Positions 326 to 33,408 of a DNA stretch of 33,408 nucleotides are shown here, in pieces. Position numbers and translations under genes: made by a program. The notes below the pieces were generated by a model. It did not search any database. It saw only the letters and a program-made list of their open reading frames with translations, and was not told the origin of the DNA. This DNA is from an uncultured Gammaproteobacteria bacterium (GTDB lineage: Bacteria; Patescibacteriota; Patescibacteriia; UBA1558; S5-K13): positions 1 to 33,408 of the forward strand of contig CAYRHT010000006.1 of NCBI GenBank assembly GCA_964424195.1. Direction: 5' to 3'. Position 1 is the stretch's first letter, and the number at the start of each line of letters is the position of its first letter.

Positions 326-1372
326 ATGCCCATCAAAGATCAAAATAAAAAAAATATAAAAATCAAAGAGCTAGGTCAATATAATACAAAACTCTCAATT
401 ATTGATTTTATAATAAAACAACCTTTTTTCCCTAAAAATAAGAAAATTAGCATCCTTGAACCCTCAAGTGGGAGTGGAAATTTCTTAGAAAAACTAAAAG
501 AAAAAGGTTATTCAAACATCTCTGCTTACGAAATAGATAAAAAATATATAAAAACAGGGGCAATTATTAAAGACTTTTTAAAATTTAAAATTAACAAAAA
601 ATTTGATTTAATAATTGGAAATCCTCCATTTACATCCACTAAAACAACAAAAAGTTACTATGAAAATTCAGAAACAGAATTTAAAACAAGGTTTATAGAA
701 ATGCTATTTTTGGAAAAAAGTTTAAAGTTACTAAAAAATAATGGAAAAATTATTTTTATTTTTCCGAACCGATTATTTTTAGACAAAAAGTTTAACAGAA
801 TACTAAAAATAATTTATAATAAAGGATTTTATATTAATAGAATTGTCGAACTACCTTTAAATATCTTTACGAACACCTCGAGTACTTCCAGTGTTTTAAT
901 AGTATTATCAAAAATAAGAAGCGGAATTTATGTTAATGGACATTCTGTTCCGATAAAGCAATTTTTAGAAGATAGCAATTTTTTACTTTATAAAGATAAA
1001 GACAAATACATTGATAAACATGCCATCTCTCTTGGCGATTTAATGAAAAAAATACCTCCACCAAAAGAATCTCAAAATAAAATAAAAGTTACAGCAGGAA
1101 ATTTAAAAATTATAAAAAACAAAAACAACACCTATTTAGCTGTTGTCCGTAATGGTAATTCAAGTGTAGGAAGATTTAGTCTATTTGACCCTAAAAAATA
1201 TTACTTCAACGAATGTTTTTATTTTTTTGAAATCAAAAATGGTTATGCAAAAGAAATACTACCTTTAATGAAAAGTGATTTTTATAAAGATTATATACAA
1301 TTAATTAGCAAGCGAACTGGCTCTAAATCTATTAGTAGCAAAGACTTATTAAAATTAATAGTAAAAAAATGA
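326..1372 (+). CDS. Amino (likely N6-adenine) DNA methyltransferase, gamma class, Type II R-M
   Basis: Motif I ILEPSSGSGNF precedes motif IV IIGNPPF. Overlaps the next gene by 4 nt (ATGA). Confidence 0.9.
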   Translation: MPIKDQNKKNIKIKELGQYNTKLSIIDFIIKQPFFPKNKKISILEPSSGSGNFLEKLKEKGYSNISAYEIDKKYIKTGAIIKDFLKFKINKKFDLIIGNPPFTSTKTTKSYYENSETEFKTRFIEMLFLEKSLKLLKNNGKIIFIFPNRLFLDKKFNRILKIIYNKGFYINRIVELPLNIFTNTSSTSSVLIVLSKIRSGIYVNGHSVPIKQFLEDSNFLLYKDKDKYIDKHAISLGDLMKKIPPPKESQNKIKVTAGNLKIIKNKNNTYLAVVRNGNSSVGRFSLFDPKKYYFNECFYFFEIKNGYAKEILPLMKSDFYKDYIQLISKRTGSKSISSKDLLKLIVKK

Positions 1373-30988: not shown

Positions 30989-31681
30989 TTATTGCTGACA
31001 ACCACAAGAAGACTGATATGTTCCTTTATTACCACTGAGACAATCTTTAACATTATCTAAATTTTCATTATTAACCTGAATTGGATAAAATTTAAATAAT
31101 CCAATTGTTAAGAATATGAATAAGATGAGAATTATAATTTGAATTTTAGATACTTTTTGAATTTCTTTCTTCTCAAATACTTCACAGGTCCCTCCAGGAC
31201 ATAATTGAGCCTTTTCTTTATGAAATAGATTGTAAATCTGACAACCTAAACAAATTCCAAAAGAAGATTCAAAAAACAAGAATATTAGACAGATTAAACA
31301 AATAGCGAAGTTTAAGGGTCCTTTAATATTCTGGACTATCATTAAGAAGAACATAATTAGTGATAATACTAATCCCATTCTCCAAGCAAACTTTTTTTGA
31401 GGAGCACCAGTATATTCTACTTTTTGTTTAGAGACAATCAAGCGACCAATGATCATGGTTGGAGCAAACTTAGGATTAACAAAAAGACGAATAAGGAAGT
31501 CAATTAAAAAGACGATAATAAATATTTTTATTAATTGAAAGTCCCAAACTAACCAAATGTGCATAAAAGATATTAGAGCAAAGACGAATAAGATACCAGC
31601 AGCAGCTCTTACTTCTCTTTCATTTAAAACTCGAACATCATATTCTTTTACTTTTTCACCAAAGTGAAATATATTTTTCAT
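30989..31681 (-). CDS. DUF4395-family membrane protein
   Basis: NEREVRAAAG, GAPQKKFAW, FESSFGICLGC, LCPGGTC. Confidence 0.8.
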   Translation of the reverse strand: MKNIFHFGEKVKEYDVRVLNEREVRAAAGILFVFALISFMHIWLVWDFQLIKIFIIVFLIDFLIRLFVNPKFAPTMIIGRLIVSKQKVEYTGAPQKKFAWRMGLVLSLIMFFLMIVQNIKGPLNFAICLICLIFLFFESSFGICLGCQIYNLFHKEKAQLCPGGTCEVFEKKEIQKVSKIQIIILILFIFLTIGLFKFYPIQVNNENLDNVKDCLSGNKGTYQSSCGCQQ

Positions 31682-31750
31682 ATATTTATAATTTAATTAT
31701 TAAATACTTTTTAAAGTATAGCATTATTATGAGAAGATAAAAAATAAATT

Positions 31751-31777
31751 AAAAACAGACCTTTATGGTCTATTTTT
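31751..31777 (-). terminator. Terminator at the distal end of the cassette array
   Basis: AAAAACAGACC-TTTAT-GGTCTATTTTT, fully paired with a G-U on the minus strand. Confidence 0.7.
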
Positions 31778-31810
31778 TGTTTATCTGTCTTTTGGATTTT
31801 CACTATTTCA

Positions 31811-31884
31811 CCTCAACGTGTTCCAGATGATCCGAAGTCCTGCAAGTGAAACGAAGGAGGATTTTGGATATCTAGCGTTGTATG
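31811..31884. mobile_element. attC-like site A (array end)
   Basis: CCTCAAC...CCAGATGATCC GAAGT...GGATATCTAG C GTTGTAT, an imperfect hairpin with a bulged base. Confidence 0.55.
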
Positions 31885-31891
31885 ATGTTGA

Positions 31892-32449
31892 TTAAAAAAA
31901 TTTCTTATTTATTTTTGATAAATAATCTTCATAAAATTCGGAACCTAATTCTGCTAATAAAATTGGATTATTTGGTTCATTTACTTGCTTACCCAAATGT
32001 GTACATGGAGGATAGAAAAGTTTGCCTGAATTAGTAAAGGAGGTAGCTACTATTTTCTCTGGGTAAAATTGAACTCCAGAGGTGACTTCGTAAGTCACCT
32101 TACTATCATGAACAATAAAGCTTTTTTCCTTTGGTAGAGACGTTATTAATATGTGTTGTGGACTTTTTTCTATAAACTCTTCTATTGTGTGTTCGTCTGC
32201 GTCTCTAGCGTTTTTTAAATATTGTAAAAGAGGGTCTTCTTTTCTTTCATTTTTAAAGTTACTTTGCCATGGTTCAAATTTATTACGAAACGATTGACAT
32301 TCTCTTTCGGCTTTTTTCCAAACCTTTTCGAGGTAATTAAGAAAATTTTTCCAATTTTTTTCAAAATCTTTAATATTTTCAGCTTTTTTCATAGATTCTA
32401 AGGAATCTTTTGCTAATTTAAGTTCTTTTTTTGAATGTTTAAGAGACAT
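31892..32449 (-). CDS. Cassette-borne hypothetical protein, HEPN-like
   Basis: Helical N-terminal half with LKNARDADEH (Rx4H, R82/H87). Bounded by attC-like sites. Confidence 0.6.
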   Translation of the reverse strand: MSLKHSKKELKLAKDSLESMKKAENIKDFEKNWKNFLNYLEKVWKKAERECQSFRNKFEPWQSNFKNERKEDPLLQYLKNARDADEHTIEEFIEKSPQHILITSLPKEKSFIVHDSKVTYEVTSGVQFYPEKIVATSFTNSGKLFYPPCTHLGKQVNEPNNPILLAELGSEFYEDYLSKINKKFF

Positions 32450-32467
32450 ATTTTTTTAATTAATTTC

Positions 32468-32568
32468 ATATAACGTTTACCGATATCCGAAGTTTTCTTG
32501 AGCAGAGCGAAAGAAAACTTGGGTGGAGGTTCTCGGAAGAGCCGTAACCGGATATCGCGTTGTTAGCT
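32468..32568. mobile_element. attC-like site B
   Basis: ATATAAC...CGATATCCG / CGGATATCG...GTTAGCT, with an internal 10-bp hairpin AAGTTTTCTT/AAGAAAACTT. A GC-rich island in AT-rich DNA. Confidence 0.7.
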
Positions 32569-32634
32569 GATGTGTATGTTTTTCTTTGACCCGCCCAGAG
32601 CGGGTCACTCTTAAAAAGAATTAAGTTTTATTTT

Positions 32635-33153
32635 TTACGTTTCCTGTTGCTTTTTTAATTTGTTGCTTAATTCTCTAAGGTTTTTTAACAAATCATAGAC
32701 TTTAAATTTTTTTTGTTTTTCAAATTGATCTATTAAGTCTCTGTACGATAAATAGTTTTCCCAAACATCAATTTCATTATCACTGGGAAAATCAACTTCA
32801 GCCGTAAGTTTCATTTGATTTCTTTGTTTAAATTTACTACTTTGCTTAAAATCACTAGCACACTTAGTCAAATCAGCTCGAAGAGCCATTAATTGACCAA
32901 TTTCAACCATTGATGTATTTTCTCCACGCTTTAGATGTGCTCCATATTGCTCCATTAAATATTTCTCATTAGGCAATACATCTAATATTTCTTCCATTTT
33001 TAAAATTATTTCTTCTGGATTTACTTCTTTTTCATTTTCAGGTGTCTCTGTTTTTGTTATTTCCGGATCAGTCCCAGGTTTTAAAGTTTCATTTTGATTT
33101 TTTGTATTTGCCATCTCTTCTGGAGTTGGCATTTTTGGTTCTTCAATACCCAT
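32635..33153 (-). CDS. Cassette-borne hypothetical protein
   Basis: 172 aa, with an acidic Pro/Thr-rich N-terminus then a helical domain. Lies between attC-like sites B and C. Confidence 0.7.
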   Translation of the reverse strand: MGIEEPKMPTPEEMANTKNQNETLKPGTDPEITKTETPENEKEVNPEEIILKMEEILDVLPNEKYLMEQYGAHLKRGENTSMVEIGQLMALRADLTKCASDFKQSSKFKQRNQMKLTAEVDFPSDNEIDVWENYLSYRDLIDQFEKQKKFKVYDLLKNLRELSNKLKKQQET

Positions 33154-33253
33154 ATTTTTTTGTTATTTATTAAAATAATAATTATTAATAGTAAAAATAA
33201 AATTTAATTCTTTTTAAAAGTAGGCGTTAGCCGTAAAGTAAAACATATATTTC

Positions 33254-33352
33254 AGCTAACATCGCGATTAAGCGAAGTAAAATTTCTAGGCAACCCAAGA
33301 AATTTTATTTGGACGGAGCCTGCAAGGCGGAGTCTCTTAATCGCTGTTATAC
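33254..33352. mobile_element. attC-like site C
   Basis: AGCTAAC...GCGATTAAG / CTTAATCGC T GTTATAC, with internal hairpin AAGTAAAATTTCT/AGAAATTTTATTT. TCAGCTAAC (33252-33260) is the exact reverse complement of GTTAGCTGA (32562-32570). Confidence 0.7.
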
Positions 33353-33408
33353 GTTTTTTCTGCAAGAAAAAAAGCCGAAGGCTCAGTTCAAAAAATATTT
33401 TTCGTTCT

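Follow-up and report, generated by a model that had tools for sequence, protein, structure and literature searches.

The window, the whole stretch of 33,408 nucleotides that was analyzed, ends in the distal part of an integron-like cassette array, the top strand of which is the minus strand of the window. The features of the array are as follows, in the order of their coordinates.

31811-31883, minus strand: last attC-like site of the array, an imperfect hairpin with R'' (ATACAAC) at 31877-31883 and R' (GTTGAGG) at 31811-31817
31817-32473, minus strand: cassette 1, starting at the first T that follows G in the upstream R' and ending at the G of its own R'
31877-31901, minus strand: 3' arm of cassette 1 (R'' plus extension), overlapping the stop codon at 31892-31894
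31892-32449, minus strand: payload of cassette 1, an open reading frame (ORF) of 185 amino acids
32450-32474, minus strand: 5' arm of cassette 1 (R' GTTATAT, GAAAT, and an A-rich run), abutting the ATG at 32447-32449
32468-32568, minus strand: attC-like site separating cassettes 2 and 1, with the conserved core GGTTACGGCT...CCTCCACCCAA
32474-33259, minus strand: cassette 2, with an ORF of 172 amino acids at 32635-33153 as payload
32562-32635, minus strand: 3' arm of cassette 2, made up of R'', extension, and ext1' (32562-32587), hairpin hpR (32588-32606), and ext2' (32607-32635), which ends on the stop codon
33193-33260, minus strand: 5' arm of cassette 2, made up of ext2 (33193-33221), hairpin hpL (33222-33234), and ext1 with R' GTTAGCT (33235-33260)
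33254-33352, minus strand: attC-like site separating cassette 2 from the GmrSD cassette, most of which is outside the window
33346-33408, minus strand: start of the 3' arm of this next cassette (GmrSD payload, outside the window), with a terminator-like hairpin at 33372-33384

Extension of the array (L001) on a 952-kb contig gave six complete cassettes and seven attC-like sites. All seven sites have AAC...GTT boxes, in keeping with the attC pattern (R'', RYYYAAC; R', GTTRRRY), and inner stems of 9 to 11 bp, and the circular junction of the last one (31811-31883) folds in prediction. The 185-aa ORF of cassette 1 matched no Pfam family; homologues of this payload with 38 to 45% identity are found in classical-type cassettes elsewhere. 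An Rfam search of 31600-33408 gave no family at an E value of 1 or less, a promoter scan gave counts no higher than in shuffles, and the window's 31 kb of housekeeping DNA contains none of the arm motifs.

When searching 31600-33408 for inverted repeats, we found that the three longest are the ends of the two complete cassettes: I1 (32554-32587 versus 33235-33268; 34 nt, 85%) and I2 (32607-32635 versus 33193-33221; 29 nt, 93%) in cassette 2 and I3 (26 nt, 85%) in cassette 1. Overall, the inverted arms in the window measure about 25 to 75 bases. The preliminary description had aligned the ends of cassette 2 with a 9/9 core (GTTAGCTGA), a paired block, and hairpins at the same offset, and its coordinates and counts hold. 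The local hairpins lie 24 nt from the R box: hpR (32588-32606) has a 7-bp GC stem, hpL (33222-33234) reads GGC-GTTA-GCC, and the similar hairpin noted near 33373 in the GmrSD cassette was found at 33372-33384 with the same 24-nt offset. For that cassette, the alignment of the arm blocks extends past 100 nt and includes indels. The GC stem and T tract of an intrinsic terminator are not combined in hpR or hpL of cassette 2; only the hairpins at 33372-33384 and 31751-31777, the latter outside the array, are terminator-like. With the first 12 nt excluded from scoring, the arms of cassette 2 scored 48, compared with 15.4 ± 2.6 in dinucleotide shuffles (z = 12.5; 0 of 1,000 shuffles), and a score of 48 was reached by 0 of 1,093 other window tiles. 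The ATG of this cassette lies 39 nt inward of the 5' arm, and its frame (arms plus attC) is about 240 nt long.

The claim that long arms bound each cassette thus held for cassette 2 but not for cassette 1 past the first 12 nt. Direct reading bore out the match of 21 of 25 positions between 31877-31901 and the reverse complement of 32450-32474. Past the first 12 nt, however, the score was 22 (z = 1.3), which 131 of 1,000 shuffles reached, so most of this "long" repeat is the 12-nt extension found throughout the family (GTTNNNTGAAAT / ACATCANNNAAC), to which an A/T run is added; counting the R box raised z to 3.8. The frame of cassette 1 is about 170 nt. That this cassette is almost armless past the 12-nt extension counts against the reading of the arms that we prefer below.

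We compared the cassette ends with those of a control set of nine classical-type cassettes. Six class 1 cassettes showed perfect pairing over 6 to 12 nt from the GTT and none beyond, and three other classical-type cassettes paired over 9 to 11 nt, so the earlier statement that complementarity is typically limited to the R box of ~7 bp is roughly right. Every complete cassette of L001 has arms of the kind seen here. The preliminary description had allowed that other cassettes might lack the extension or that shuffled controls might match as well; this was the case only for cassette 1 beyond 12 nt, and not for cassette 2 or the array.

We investigated the distribution of the arms in a set of 81 related loci with the attC core motif, mostly from CPR/Patescibacteria metagenome-assembled genomes; 137 AAC...GTT sites were found in related loci. 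Cognate-specific arms, scoring above the 95th percentile of noncognate scores, were found in 35 of the 39 cassettes that are cleanly delimited by matching R boxes. Cognate arms had a median score of 36, and noncognate arms one of 18. The reach of the arms in the delimited cassettes has a median of 68 nt, with 123 nt as the maximum, and the arms end close to the coding region, with a median of 4 nt to the stop and 20 nt to the start. Frames typically measure about 210 to 260 nt, and the longest versions reach about 365 nt. Of the automatically delimited "cassettes", about a third have no arms; most of these have mismatched end R boxes and different arm families and probably represent two or more cassettes separated by a site that was missed.

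The arms have a fixed order of R box, ext1, local hairpin, ext2, and sometimes ext3, and the 12-bp extended R box carries one conserved mismatch. They fall into a few sequence families that are near-identical across candidate phyla, and unrelated payloads are found inside the same arm pairs in 21 cassette pairs. The framed payloads range from one ORF to seven genes, with 65 of 67 ORFs co-oriented with the array (65 plus, 2 minus). Arm length is symmetric across the two sides, short with short and long with long. Within families, 16 columns covary in both arms, and shuffling the partners reached the observed covariation in 1 of 2,000 trials. The two local hairpins differ between the arms, and their loops are direct on the same strand, not mirrored; a simple "longer stem" fails to explain these hairpins, a point against the preferred reading. 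Related arrays also contain payload-free units of about 55 to 90 nt, several copies per array, that consist of R' and a 12-nt arm, a loop of 11 to 15 nt with the conserved motif TCGCTYCGCTCC, the complementary arm with R'', and a mini core. The sharing of arms by unrelated payloads, the near-identity across phyla, the direct hairpin loops, and the covariation together show a conserved and maintained frame and not a relic of each cassette's origin.

The crossover was placed at G|TT on indirect evidence, in that positions 4 to 8 of R', the variable ones, agree with R'' of the same cassette. Related-payload pairs in the first data set were too few, and too diverged in nucleotide sequence, to give unit boundaries, and orthologues were supplied by protein searches. 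Because orthologue similarity begins exactly at G|TT, the arms travel with the cassette. At the attI junctions read in L071, L035, and L073, the first cassette has its 5' arm directly at the junction. Orthologues of cassette 2 with 87% and 71% protein identity are found in other arrays, and both arms are kept; the arms show two compensatory double changes, and hpR has been replaced wholesale with its structure preserved. Between window cassette 2 and the 87% orthologue, hpR and the attC core differ and the flanking arm segments are the same; three one-sided arm mismatches in the window cassette are absent from this orthologue. As the core also is only loosely linked to the arm family across the related loci, with arm families combining with several core types, the frame is mosaic, a further point against the preferred reading. 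A cassette with a radical SAM (rSAM) gene plus a peptide gene could be compared with noncassette chromosomal copies, and the similarity ends ~25 nt before the ATG and a few nucleotides past the stop codon. L109 was considered as a natural deletion of a 427-aa cassette and rejected, as the next L109 cassette shares only the arm family with L001 and not the payload. The assembled contigs of 21 runs break at attC sites and show no joints, and they are uninformative on excision or inversion; neither an excised circle nor a junction read was seen among them.

The integrases described here are those of the related loci. An IntI-like gene, divergent from the array and upstream of it, was seen in 10 related loci that have detected attC-like sites (examples of the genes are L071:4816-5676 and L106:4317-5129); an eleventh related locus also has such a gene, with no attC-like site detected there. 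The integrases have the domains PF00589 and PF13495, 26 to 34% full-length identity to IntI1, and a C-terminal (K/R)SPL motif, and their best NCBIfam matches are the integron integrase model and the XerA/integron-integrase model. They score 190 to 247 bits with TIGR02249, compared with a cutoff of 265; the match skips profile positions 181 to 236, and the alignment with IntI1 has a gap of about 45 residues. By sequence, the enzyme is IntI-like but lacks the IntI-specific additional domain. IntegronFinder presumably requires this domain, and tools that require it would probably label such arrays integrase-less. Integron recombination has been held to depend on the domain (Messier and Roy 2001, as cited in PMC9668308).

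Folding predictions were consistent with a contribution of the arms to the circular form of the cassette. The predicted bottom-strand fold has -56.6 kcal/mol in the circle, compared with -39.6 kcal/mol in the array context and -40.3 kcal/mol with a random arm, so that the arms contribute about 17 kcal/mol, and the circle was the more stable form in 51 of 59 cases (P = 2e-9). The preliminary description had suggested that the arms lengthen the stem of a single-stranded DNA substrate, and this gains support, with the arms contiguous with attC only in the circle. The predicted folds are rods with two opposed hairpins. The bottom strand was predicted to be more stable than the top strand in 57 of 59 circular junctions (P = 4e-11). 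Nivina 2016 (PMC5027507) reports the same direction for canonical attC, with the bottom strand predicted to have the lower folding energy. The L-box stems, where extrahelical bases direct strand choice in attC sites, are mostly perfect here; the asymmetry of the site lies in spacers of 1 to 4 nt versus 3 to 6 nt, a 5'-side branch, and a conserved T.T/G.T pair in the extended R box. The arms alone have no strand asymmetry (G.T wobbles, 20 versus 17; arms-only folding, P = 0.17) and so do not distinguish DNA-level from RNA-level pairing.

The system has much in common with integrons. The array is co-oriented, each cassette is closed by an imperfect hairpin that has ...AAC and GTT... as its borders, the bases just past G|TT belong to the next cassette, and in related loci a divergent tyrosine recombinase gene and an adjacent attI are found at one end of the array. 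Unlike in classical cassettes (6 to 12 nt), the end-to-end complementarity is 25 to 123 nt. Further differences from classical integrons are the strong sequence conservation of the attC core and arms across many candidate phyla, the fixed composite frame with opposed local hairpins and mostly perfect L-box stems, and the integrase of the related loci, which lacks the IntI-specific domain. Unlike the genes of housekeeping Xer recombinases, the integrase gene heads a cassette array in the 10 loci with detected attC-like sites. The payload-free units resemble the ORF-less cassettes of integrons but are only about 55 to 90 nt long, recurrent, and marked by the loop motif. Miniature inverted-repeat transposable elements (MITEs) and transposons with terminal inverted repeats likewise have inverted repeats at their ends that are tens of bases long and form sequence families. 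Here, however, target site duplications and a transposase are lacking, attC cores make up the flanks, and the termini are R boxes; unlike with MITEs, no copies occur outside the array within the window, and the interior is a variable coding payload. Xer/dif modules (pdif) were rejected as a candidate, since the sites are hairpins of about 60 to 176 nt with AAC/GTT boxes and not 28-bp XerC-spacer-XerD sites. By analogy, the processing stems of rrn operons (16S and 23S) are also formed by long-range pairing that flanks a functional unit in a longer transcript, but the repeat described here coincides with a DNA crossover site. Our full-text literature searches found no paper tying integrons or attC to CPR/Patescibacteria and no description of extended complementarity of cassette ends.

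We lean towards the explanation that the arms act as outer helices in an extra-long composite attC, with the crossover inside the hairpin, and that arms and attC form a conserved frame that aids recombination. In the circular cassette, the order would be 3' arm, R'', attC core, R', and 5' arm, and the G|TT crossover would thus lie within the hairpin and not at its base. A crossover inside the hairpin would leave one arm at each end of each arrayed cassette. The arms would be contiguous and able to pair only after excision as a circle, where the junction core-G|TTAGCTGAAAT would be joined to the 3' arm of the same cassette; alternatively, they might pair across the payload in single-stranded DNA. 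The extra stem of 25 to 120 bp would stabilize the folding or extrusion of an AT-rich site in the excised cassette, and the stabilized circle could let an Xer-like integrase without the IntI-specific domain insert the cassette at attI. The data show what the arms consist of, that they match their cognates, covary, and move with the cassette, and that they are associated with the integrase; we infer both the pairing at the DNA level and its aid to recombination. Arms in the arrayed state would be no help to attC × attC excision unless paired across the payload, and this counts against the preferred explanation. It is also possible, though we would not expect it, that arms and attC make up a reusable chassis, with genes loaded at the tip of a preexisting hairpin and the payload-free mini units as its empty state.

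The arms might act in RNA instead, pairing in the read-through transcript and looping out the coding region as an RNase III site or as an insulating or stabilizing structure. The tight fit of the arms around the coding region, the lack of DNA strand bias in them, and the fixed one-strand polarity of the spacer hairpins are in keeping with this, RNA pairing would maintain the covariation equally well, and the wholesale, structure-preserving swap of hpR fits an element of a structured transcript. Against it, the repeat starts exactly at the crossover and includes the R box, which an RNA role does not need, mismatches compatible with G.U on the top strand are not in excess (17 versus 20), and where a payload has a consensus promoter of its own past the 5' arm, as in the CsoR-ABC cassette (TTGACT-17-TATAAT), the transcript would be missing that arm. 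We regard the RNA role as unlikely. The preliminary description had also proposed a footprint of cassette genesis by fold-back copying. On this view, fold-back (snap-back) copying or an inverted duplication beside the gene would have left arms that are now decaying, functionless relics. The arms do extend to the coding region on both sides, the similarity of the rSAM-plus-peptide cassette to chromosomal copies stops near the ends of the coding region, and the three one-sided mismatches of window cassette 2 look like decay. Such a relic does not explain the same arms around unrelated payloads, the near-identity of arms across candidate phyla, the compensatory changes between arms, or the symmetric arm lengths, and unlike hairpins with direct loops would not be the product of a fold-back copy; as the record of each cassette's birth the idea is not borne out, and we rate it as quite unlikely.

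The mosaic frame, with arm families carrying several core types, and the change of hpR and core between the same flanking arm segments in the 87% orthologue would also suit arms of 75 to 135 bp conserved as homology handles for RecA-dependent exchange of payloads or attC cores after DNA uptake, with the inverted symmetry being incidental. This would leave the complementarity and covariation of the arms of one cassette, and their start at the crossover, unexplained, and we consider it improbable. The further proposal that recombination between the inverted ends, which include the R boxes, flips the cassette is not supported, given the co-orientation of nearly all ORFs with the array; in addition, the conserved GAAAT/ATGT asymmetry and the hairpin polarity are never flipped, and no inverted form was seen among the assembled contigs, which break at attC sites. 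An inversion switch is very improbable. Least credible is that the ends match by chance because the spacer DNA is AT-rich and of low complexity: this would suit cassette 1 past its first 12 nt, where 131 of 1,000 shuffles did as well, but it is refuted for cassette 2 by the shuffles and for the family as a whole by the 35 of 39 cassettes above noncognate controls.

The idea of a frame bears on how integron cassettes come to be made, a question that the preliminary description also treats as open, though a per-cassette relic is unlikely. In the family described here, which is spread over many candidate phyla of ultrasmall bacteria, the constant part is large, modular, and conserved in sequence, and it wraps the payload on both sides to within a few bases of the stop codon. 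By the usual description, what is conserved in attC sites is structure and not sequence (PMC5027507). The boundary between constant and variable parts is concrete and can be aligned for dozens of unrelated payloads. If the chassis explanation were true, CPR bacteria would have a dedicated route of cassette genesis and an Xer-like integrase working without the IntI domain. As the rSAM and peptide gene payload is also found as an ordinary chromosomal locus, the genesis of cassettes becomes addressable by direct comparison.

The AT-rich final 1.7 kb of the window holds two minus-strand ORFs, and the spacers between ORFs, of about 100 nt, are hairpin-forming and, in the minus-strand reading, start with ...AAC and finish with GTT.... 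In 31600-33408, the inverted repeats that rank first to third in length are exactly the cassette-end pairs I1, I2, and I3.

Features at the cassette ends of the window
31892-32449, minus strand: ORF of 185 aa, payload of cassette 1
32635-33153, minus strand: ORF of 172 aa, payload of cassette 2
32554-32587 versus 33235-33268: I1, 34 nt, 85% complementarity
32607-32635 versus 33193-33221: I2, 29 nt, 93% complementarity
31876-31901 versus 32450-32475: I3, 26 nt, 85% complementarity
32588-32606 and 33222-33234: small hairpins of cassette 2, 24 nt from the R box
33372-33384: equivalent small hairpin of the next cassette (GmrSD)

The count of 21 matches in 25 between 31877-31901 and the reverse complement of 32450-32474, made in the preliminary description, was borne out, as was its hairpin at a matching offset in each arm of cassette 2. 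We scored the arms without the first 12 nt from GTT, since these are conserved family-wide. Cassette 2 scored 48 against 15.4 ± 2.6 in dinucleotide shuffles (z = 12.5; 0 of 1,000 shuffles reached the score), and none of 1,093 other window tiles matched it. Cassette 1 scored 22 (z = 1.3; 131 of 1,000 shuffles) and is conspicuous only when the R box is counted (z = 3.8). The claim that each cassette is bounded by long terminal inverted repeats, for which shuffled controls had been named as a check, thus has strong support from cassette 2 and weak support from cassette 1 on its own; a chance match is ruled out, save for the distal part of the cassette 1 arms. Between the last attC and a DUF4395 gene lies a terminator-like bidirectional hairpin (AAAAATAGACC-ATAAA-GGTCTGTTTTT, 31751-31777), and the TGAAAT extension typical of the family is still present after the last R'. 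In seawater metagenome assemblies, word depth climbs from about 6x to 40-240x over 33336-33408 and contigs are broken at attC sites, so the arm and attC sequences are common to many genomes in these samples.

The 172-aa protein was placed on a 952-kb metagenomic contig. The extended array, L001, reaches 10 kb past the window end; its plus strand is the window minus strand, and the window coordinate is 43154 minus the L001 coordinate. It has seven attC-like sites and six complete cassettes in a single shared orientation.

Cassettes of L001, in order
Cassette 1: 427-aa protein
Cassette 2: five-gene CsoR and ABC transporter unit
Cassette 3: 91-aa protein
Cassette 4: GmrSD
Cassette 5: 172-aa protein, cassette 2 of the window
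Cassette 6: 185-aa protein, cassette 1 of the window
Seventh cassette: radical-SAM gene and peptide gene, cut by the L001 end

A lack of the extension in other cassettes, which would have counted against the preliminary description, was not seen: end-to-end complementarity runs past the R box in all complete L001 cassettes, reaching 75 nt in the 427-aa and CsoR-ABC cassettes and, with indels, >100 nt in the GmrSD cassette. The latter (L001:7599-9641) lies just past the window end, with its 3' arm starting from window position 33346, and its gene (PF03235, PF07510) belongs to a family annotated as restriction of modified DNA. Most of an 80-aa gene called at L001:7322-7564 falls within the GmrSD cassette's 5' arm and 176-nt attC site, and the call is probably spurious.

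As controls we used six class-1 cassettes from four plasmids, aadB, aadA2, arr-3, aac(6')-Ib4, aac(6')-29a, and blaVIM-2, in which perfect pairing from GTT extends over 12, 12, 8, 12, 6, and 11 nt, respectively; past 12 nt, the cognate scores (12-18) equal the non-cognate ones (mean, 14). Homologues of the 185-aa protein (38-45% identity) occur in classical-type cassettes of other bacteria, with end complementarity of only 9-11 nt, so one gene family is carried by two cassette kinds. The premise that complementarity is limited in typical cassettes is therefore about right for class-1 and classical-type cassettes, the scope of this comparison, and the arms in candidate phyla of the Patescibacteria (CPR) are a real departure. 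The 185-aa protein matches no Pfam family; its homologue loci (L137, L139, and L141) include one named source, Dyadobacter frigoris.

We scanned one genome per species with the attC-core motif TACGGCT.TT...CCTYCRCCCAA and obtained 103 loci, 81 of them genuine attC contexts. About 50 of the 84 record titles tallied named metagenome-assembled genomes (MAGs) of CPR/Patescibacteria from many candidate phyla, including Falkow-, Magasanik-, Moran-, Uhr-, Peregrini-, Gracili-, and Saccharibacteria and Parcubacteria; a few named bins of archaea or "Gammaproteobacteria". Between MAGs, the core and the initial portion of the arms are near-identical. The attC core GGTTACGGCTTTT..AAAAGCCTCCACCCAAAT.. (window 32500-32540; related loci L005-L107) is near-identical across many candidate phyla and recurs in three archaeal bins (Methanoregula, Altiarchaeales, and Methanosarcinales); this is unusual for attC sites and suggests mis-binning or a recent spread.

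A simple finder gave 137 attC sites and 62 intervals between neighboring sites, in which the median arm score past the first 12 nt was 36 for cognate and 18 for non-cognate pairs. Among the 39 intervals whose R' fits their own R'', taken as single cassettes, 35 scored above the 95th percentile of non-cognate pairs. Gapped alignment extended from GTT over a median of 68 nt (quartiles, 30-73; maximum, 123), and the median distance between arm end and coding region was 4 nt at the stop codon and 20 nt at the start codon; 65 ORFs were oriented with the array and 2 opposite. Armless intervals, mostly with mismatched R boxes and differing arm families at the two ends, are probably merged cassettes. 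One architecture is seen throughout.

Elements of the arms, outward from the crossover
Element 1: GTTNNN(T)GAAAT (5' end) versus ACATCANNNAAC (3' end), 12-bp R box with one conserved mismatch (38 of 62 intervals)
Element 2: ext1, about 14 nt
Element 3: local hairpin, one per arm
Element 4: ext2, 27-31 nt, near-perfect
Element 5: in long versions only, ext3 (AGAGGGGAWTAAGG) and further conserved elements

The constant side is about 135 nt each in long versions, and short versions, such as cassette 2 of the window, are short at both sides. The two local hairpins of a cassette are not mirror images: in 9 of 21 cases, the loops of both arms have TATC as their top-strand and GATA as their bottom-strand sequence, and G..A loops were found 11 times on the bottom strand and twice on the top. 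Two further repeated elements were observed. A GC-rich conserved hairpin of about 51 nt, GTTTTGG....TTCACCCCTAACCCCTC....CCAAAAC, found at L001:6678-6729 and in about 30 related loci (e.g., L030, L059, and L094), starts directly after the payload stop codon, which lies within a conserved ATAAGGAG motif; as it has no T tract, it is not a standard terminator. Payload-free mini units, with several copies per array, directly follow an attC and consist of GTT and a 10-nt arm, an 11-15-nt loop with TCGCTYCGCTCC, the complementary arm and AAC, and a 14-30-nt mini core. The same loop motif is present at two other places: the attC core, in its second hairpin, and the long 5' arms, at their inner end.

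Mini units in related loci
L011:161-201 and 1038-1078, plus strand
L024 1907 and 3750; L026 2200 and 3113, reverse-complement coordinates
L090:290 and 2966; L094:642, plus-strand starts

The arms are common to cassettes of different content, and they co-evolve. Both arms are shared within 21 cassette pairs whose unrelated payloads extend from one 130-aa ORF up to seven genes, and both arms change together in 16 alignment columns of three arm families, a matching that within-family shuffling of partners equaled in 1 of 2,000 trials. Orthologues of the 172-aa cassette (87% and 71% protein identity) lie in other arrays with different neighbors; similarity to the window starts exactly at the GTT of R', and both arms are retained. 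In the 71% orthologue, ext1 and ext2 each have one compensatory double substitution. The 3' arm hairpin was swapped wholesale and is still a hairpin (GACCCGC...GCGGGTC in the window versus GATTTGC...GCAAATC in the orthologues). Three one-sided mismatches in cassette 2 of the window are absent from the 87% orthologue. The attC core of the window copy differs from that of the orthologues, and arm families are paired with several core types across the data set, so the frame is mosaic. A 63% homologue of the 172-aa protein lies between direct repeats of about 70 nt, AAGTTCGAAGA.TAGAGGCTAAGGGAAGCCA.CATTAAATAGAGCCTAAAGCTCTATTTTTTG, with no inverted arms (L136:300-480 and 1010-1130); these are repeated spacers of another kind. 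Arms and attC are best interpreted as a conserved, co-evolving frame round any payload. A scar of cassette birth without function, such as the footprint of fold-back copying first suggested, is unlikely given the arms shared across payloads, their co-variation, and the non-mirrored hairpins; inversion, also suggested, is not supported.

For predicted folding, the 3' arm, attC, and 5' arm of each cassette were joined as in the excised circle. The modeled circle folds to a long rod that carries two local hairpins opposite each other.

Mean predicted bottom-strand energy of 59 cassettes
Circle, cognate arms: -56.6 kcal/mol
Array, next cassette's arm: -39.6 kcal/mol
Random arm: -40.3 kcal/mol

The circle was the more stable predicted fold in 51 of 59 cassettes (p = 2e-9), which speaks for a longer stem once the cassette is excised and agrees with the earlier proposal that the symmetry may lengthen the single-stranded DNA stem. 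The bottom strand was more stable than the top in 57 of 59, an asymmetry whose source is the core; none was found for the arms alone (p = 0.17), with G.T-compatible mismatches balanced at 20 versus 17. The folding therefore fits RNA pairing as well as DNA pairing, and stems at the RNA level that process or insulate cassette transcripts remain the main rival. The inverted repeats themselves are best explained as the outer helices of an extra-long composite attC with the crossover inside the hairpin, which leaves one arm at each end of the linear cassette. The extra stem may help the excised cassette fold for insertion, a role to which the AT-rich sequence and an integrase without the domain that reads extrahelical bases lend added plausibility.

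With IntI1 as the probe, full-length homologues (26-34% identity; E = 1e-29 to 1e-43) were found in 11 related loci (L022, L071, L051, L106, L035, L073, L034, L099, L037, L074, and L010). All 11 loci have the integrase gene on the opposite strand, and in each of the 10 with detected attC-like sites it is upstream of the array, the same placement as in canonical integrons. At the attI junction of L071, the 5' arm of the first cassette sits directly at G|TT. As called, the integrases have 269-319 aa (mostly 269-290 aa) and contain PF00589 and PF13495. They score 190-247 bits with the integron-integrase model TIGR02249, below its cutoff of 265, and the match is split in two, with profile positions 181-236 skipped; the XerA/integron-integrase model is passed by three of five. 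Alignment with IntI1 shows about 45 residues of the IntI-specific domain to be missing. According to a passage in PMC9668308, citing Messier and Roy 2001, this domain is a defining characteristic of IntI and necessary for recombination. The array works like an integron, but the integrases of related loci fall outside strict membership as judged by the IntI domain. In the full-text literature searched, with most subscription journals outside it, we found no integron or attC linked with CPR/Patescibacteria and no description of extended cassette-end complementarity.

Tools that demand the IntI-specific domain would probably call such arrays integrase-less. The radical-SAM/SPASM gene with its small upstream peptide gene (L001:15-1222) is a cassette in L001, L108, and L109; L111 keeps the 5' arm with no attC downstream, and in L110 and L112-L115 (70-83% identity) the pair is an ordinary chromosomal locus without attC. 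Similarity between cassette and chromosomal copies ends about 25 nt upstream of the peptide ATG and a few nucleotides past the stop codon, and these copies are a natural before-and-after pair for cassette genesis.
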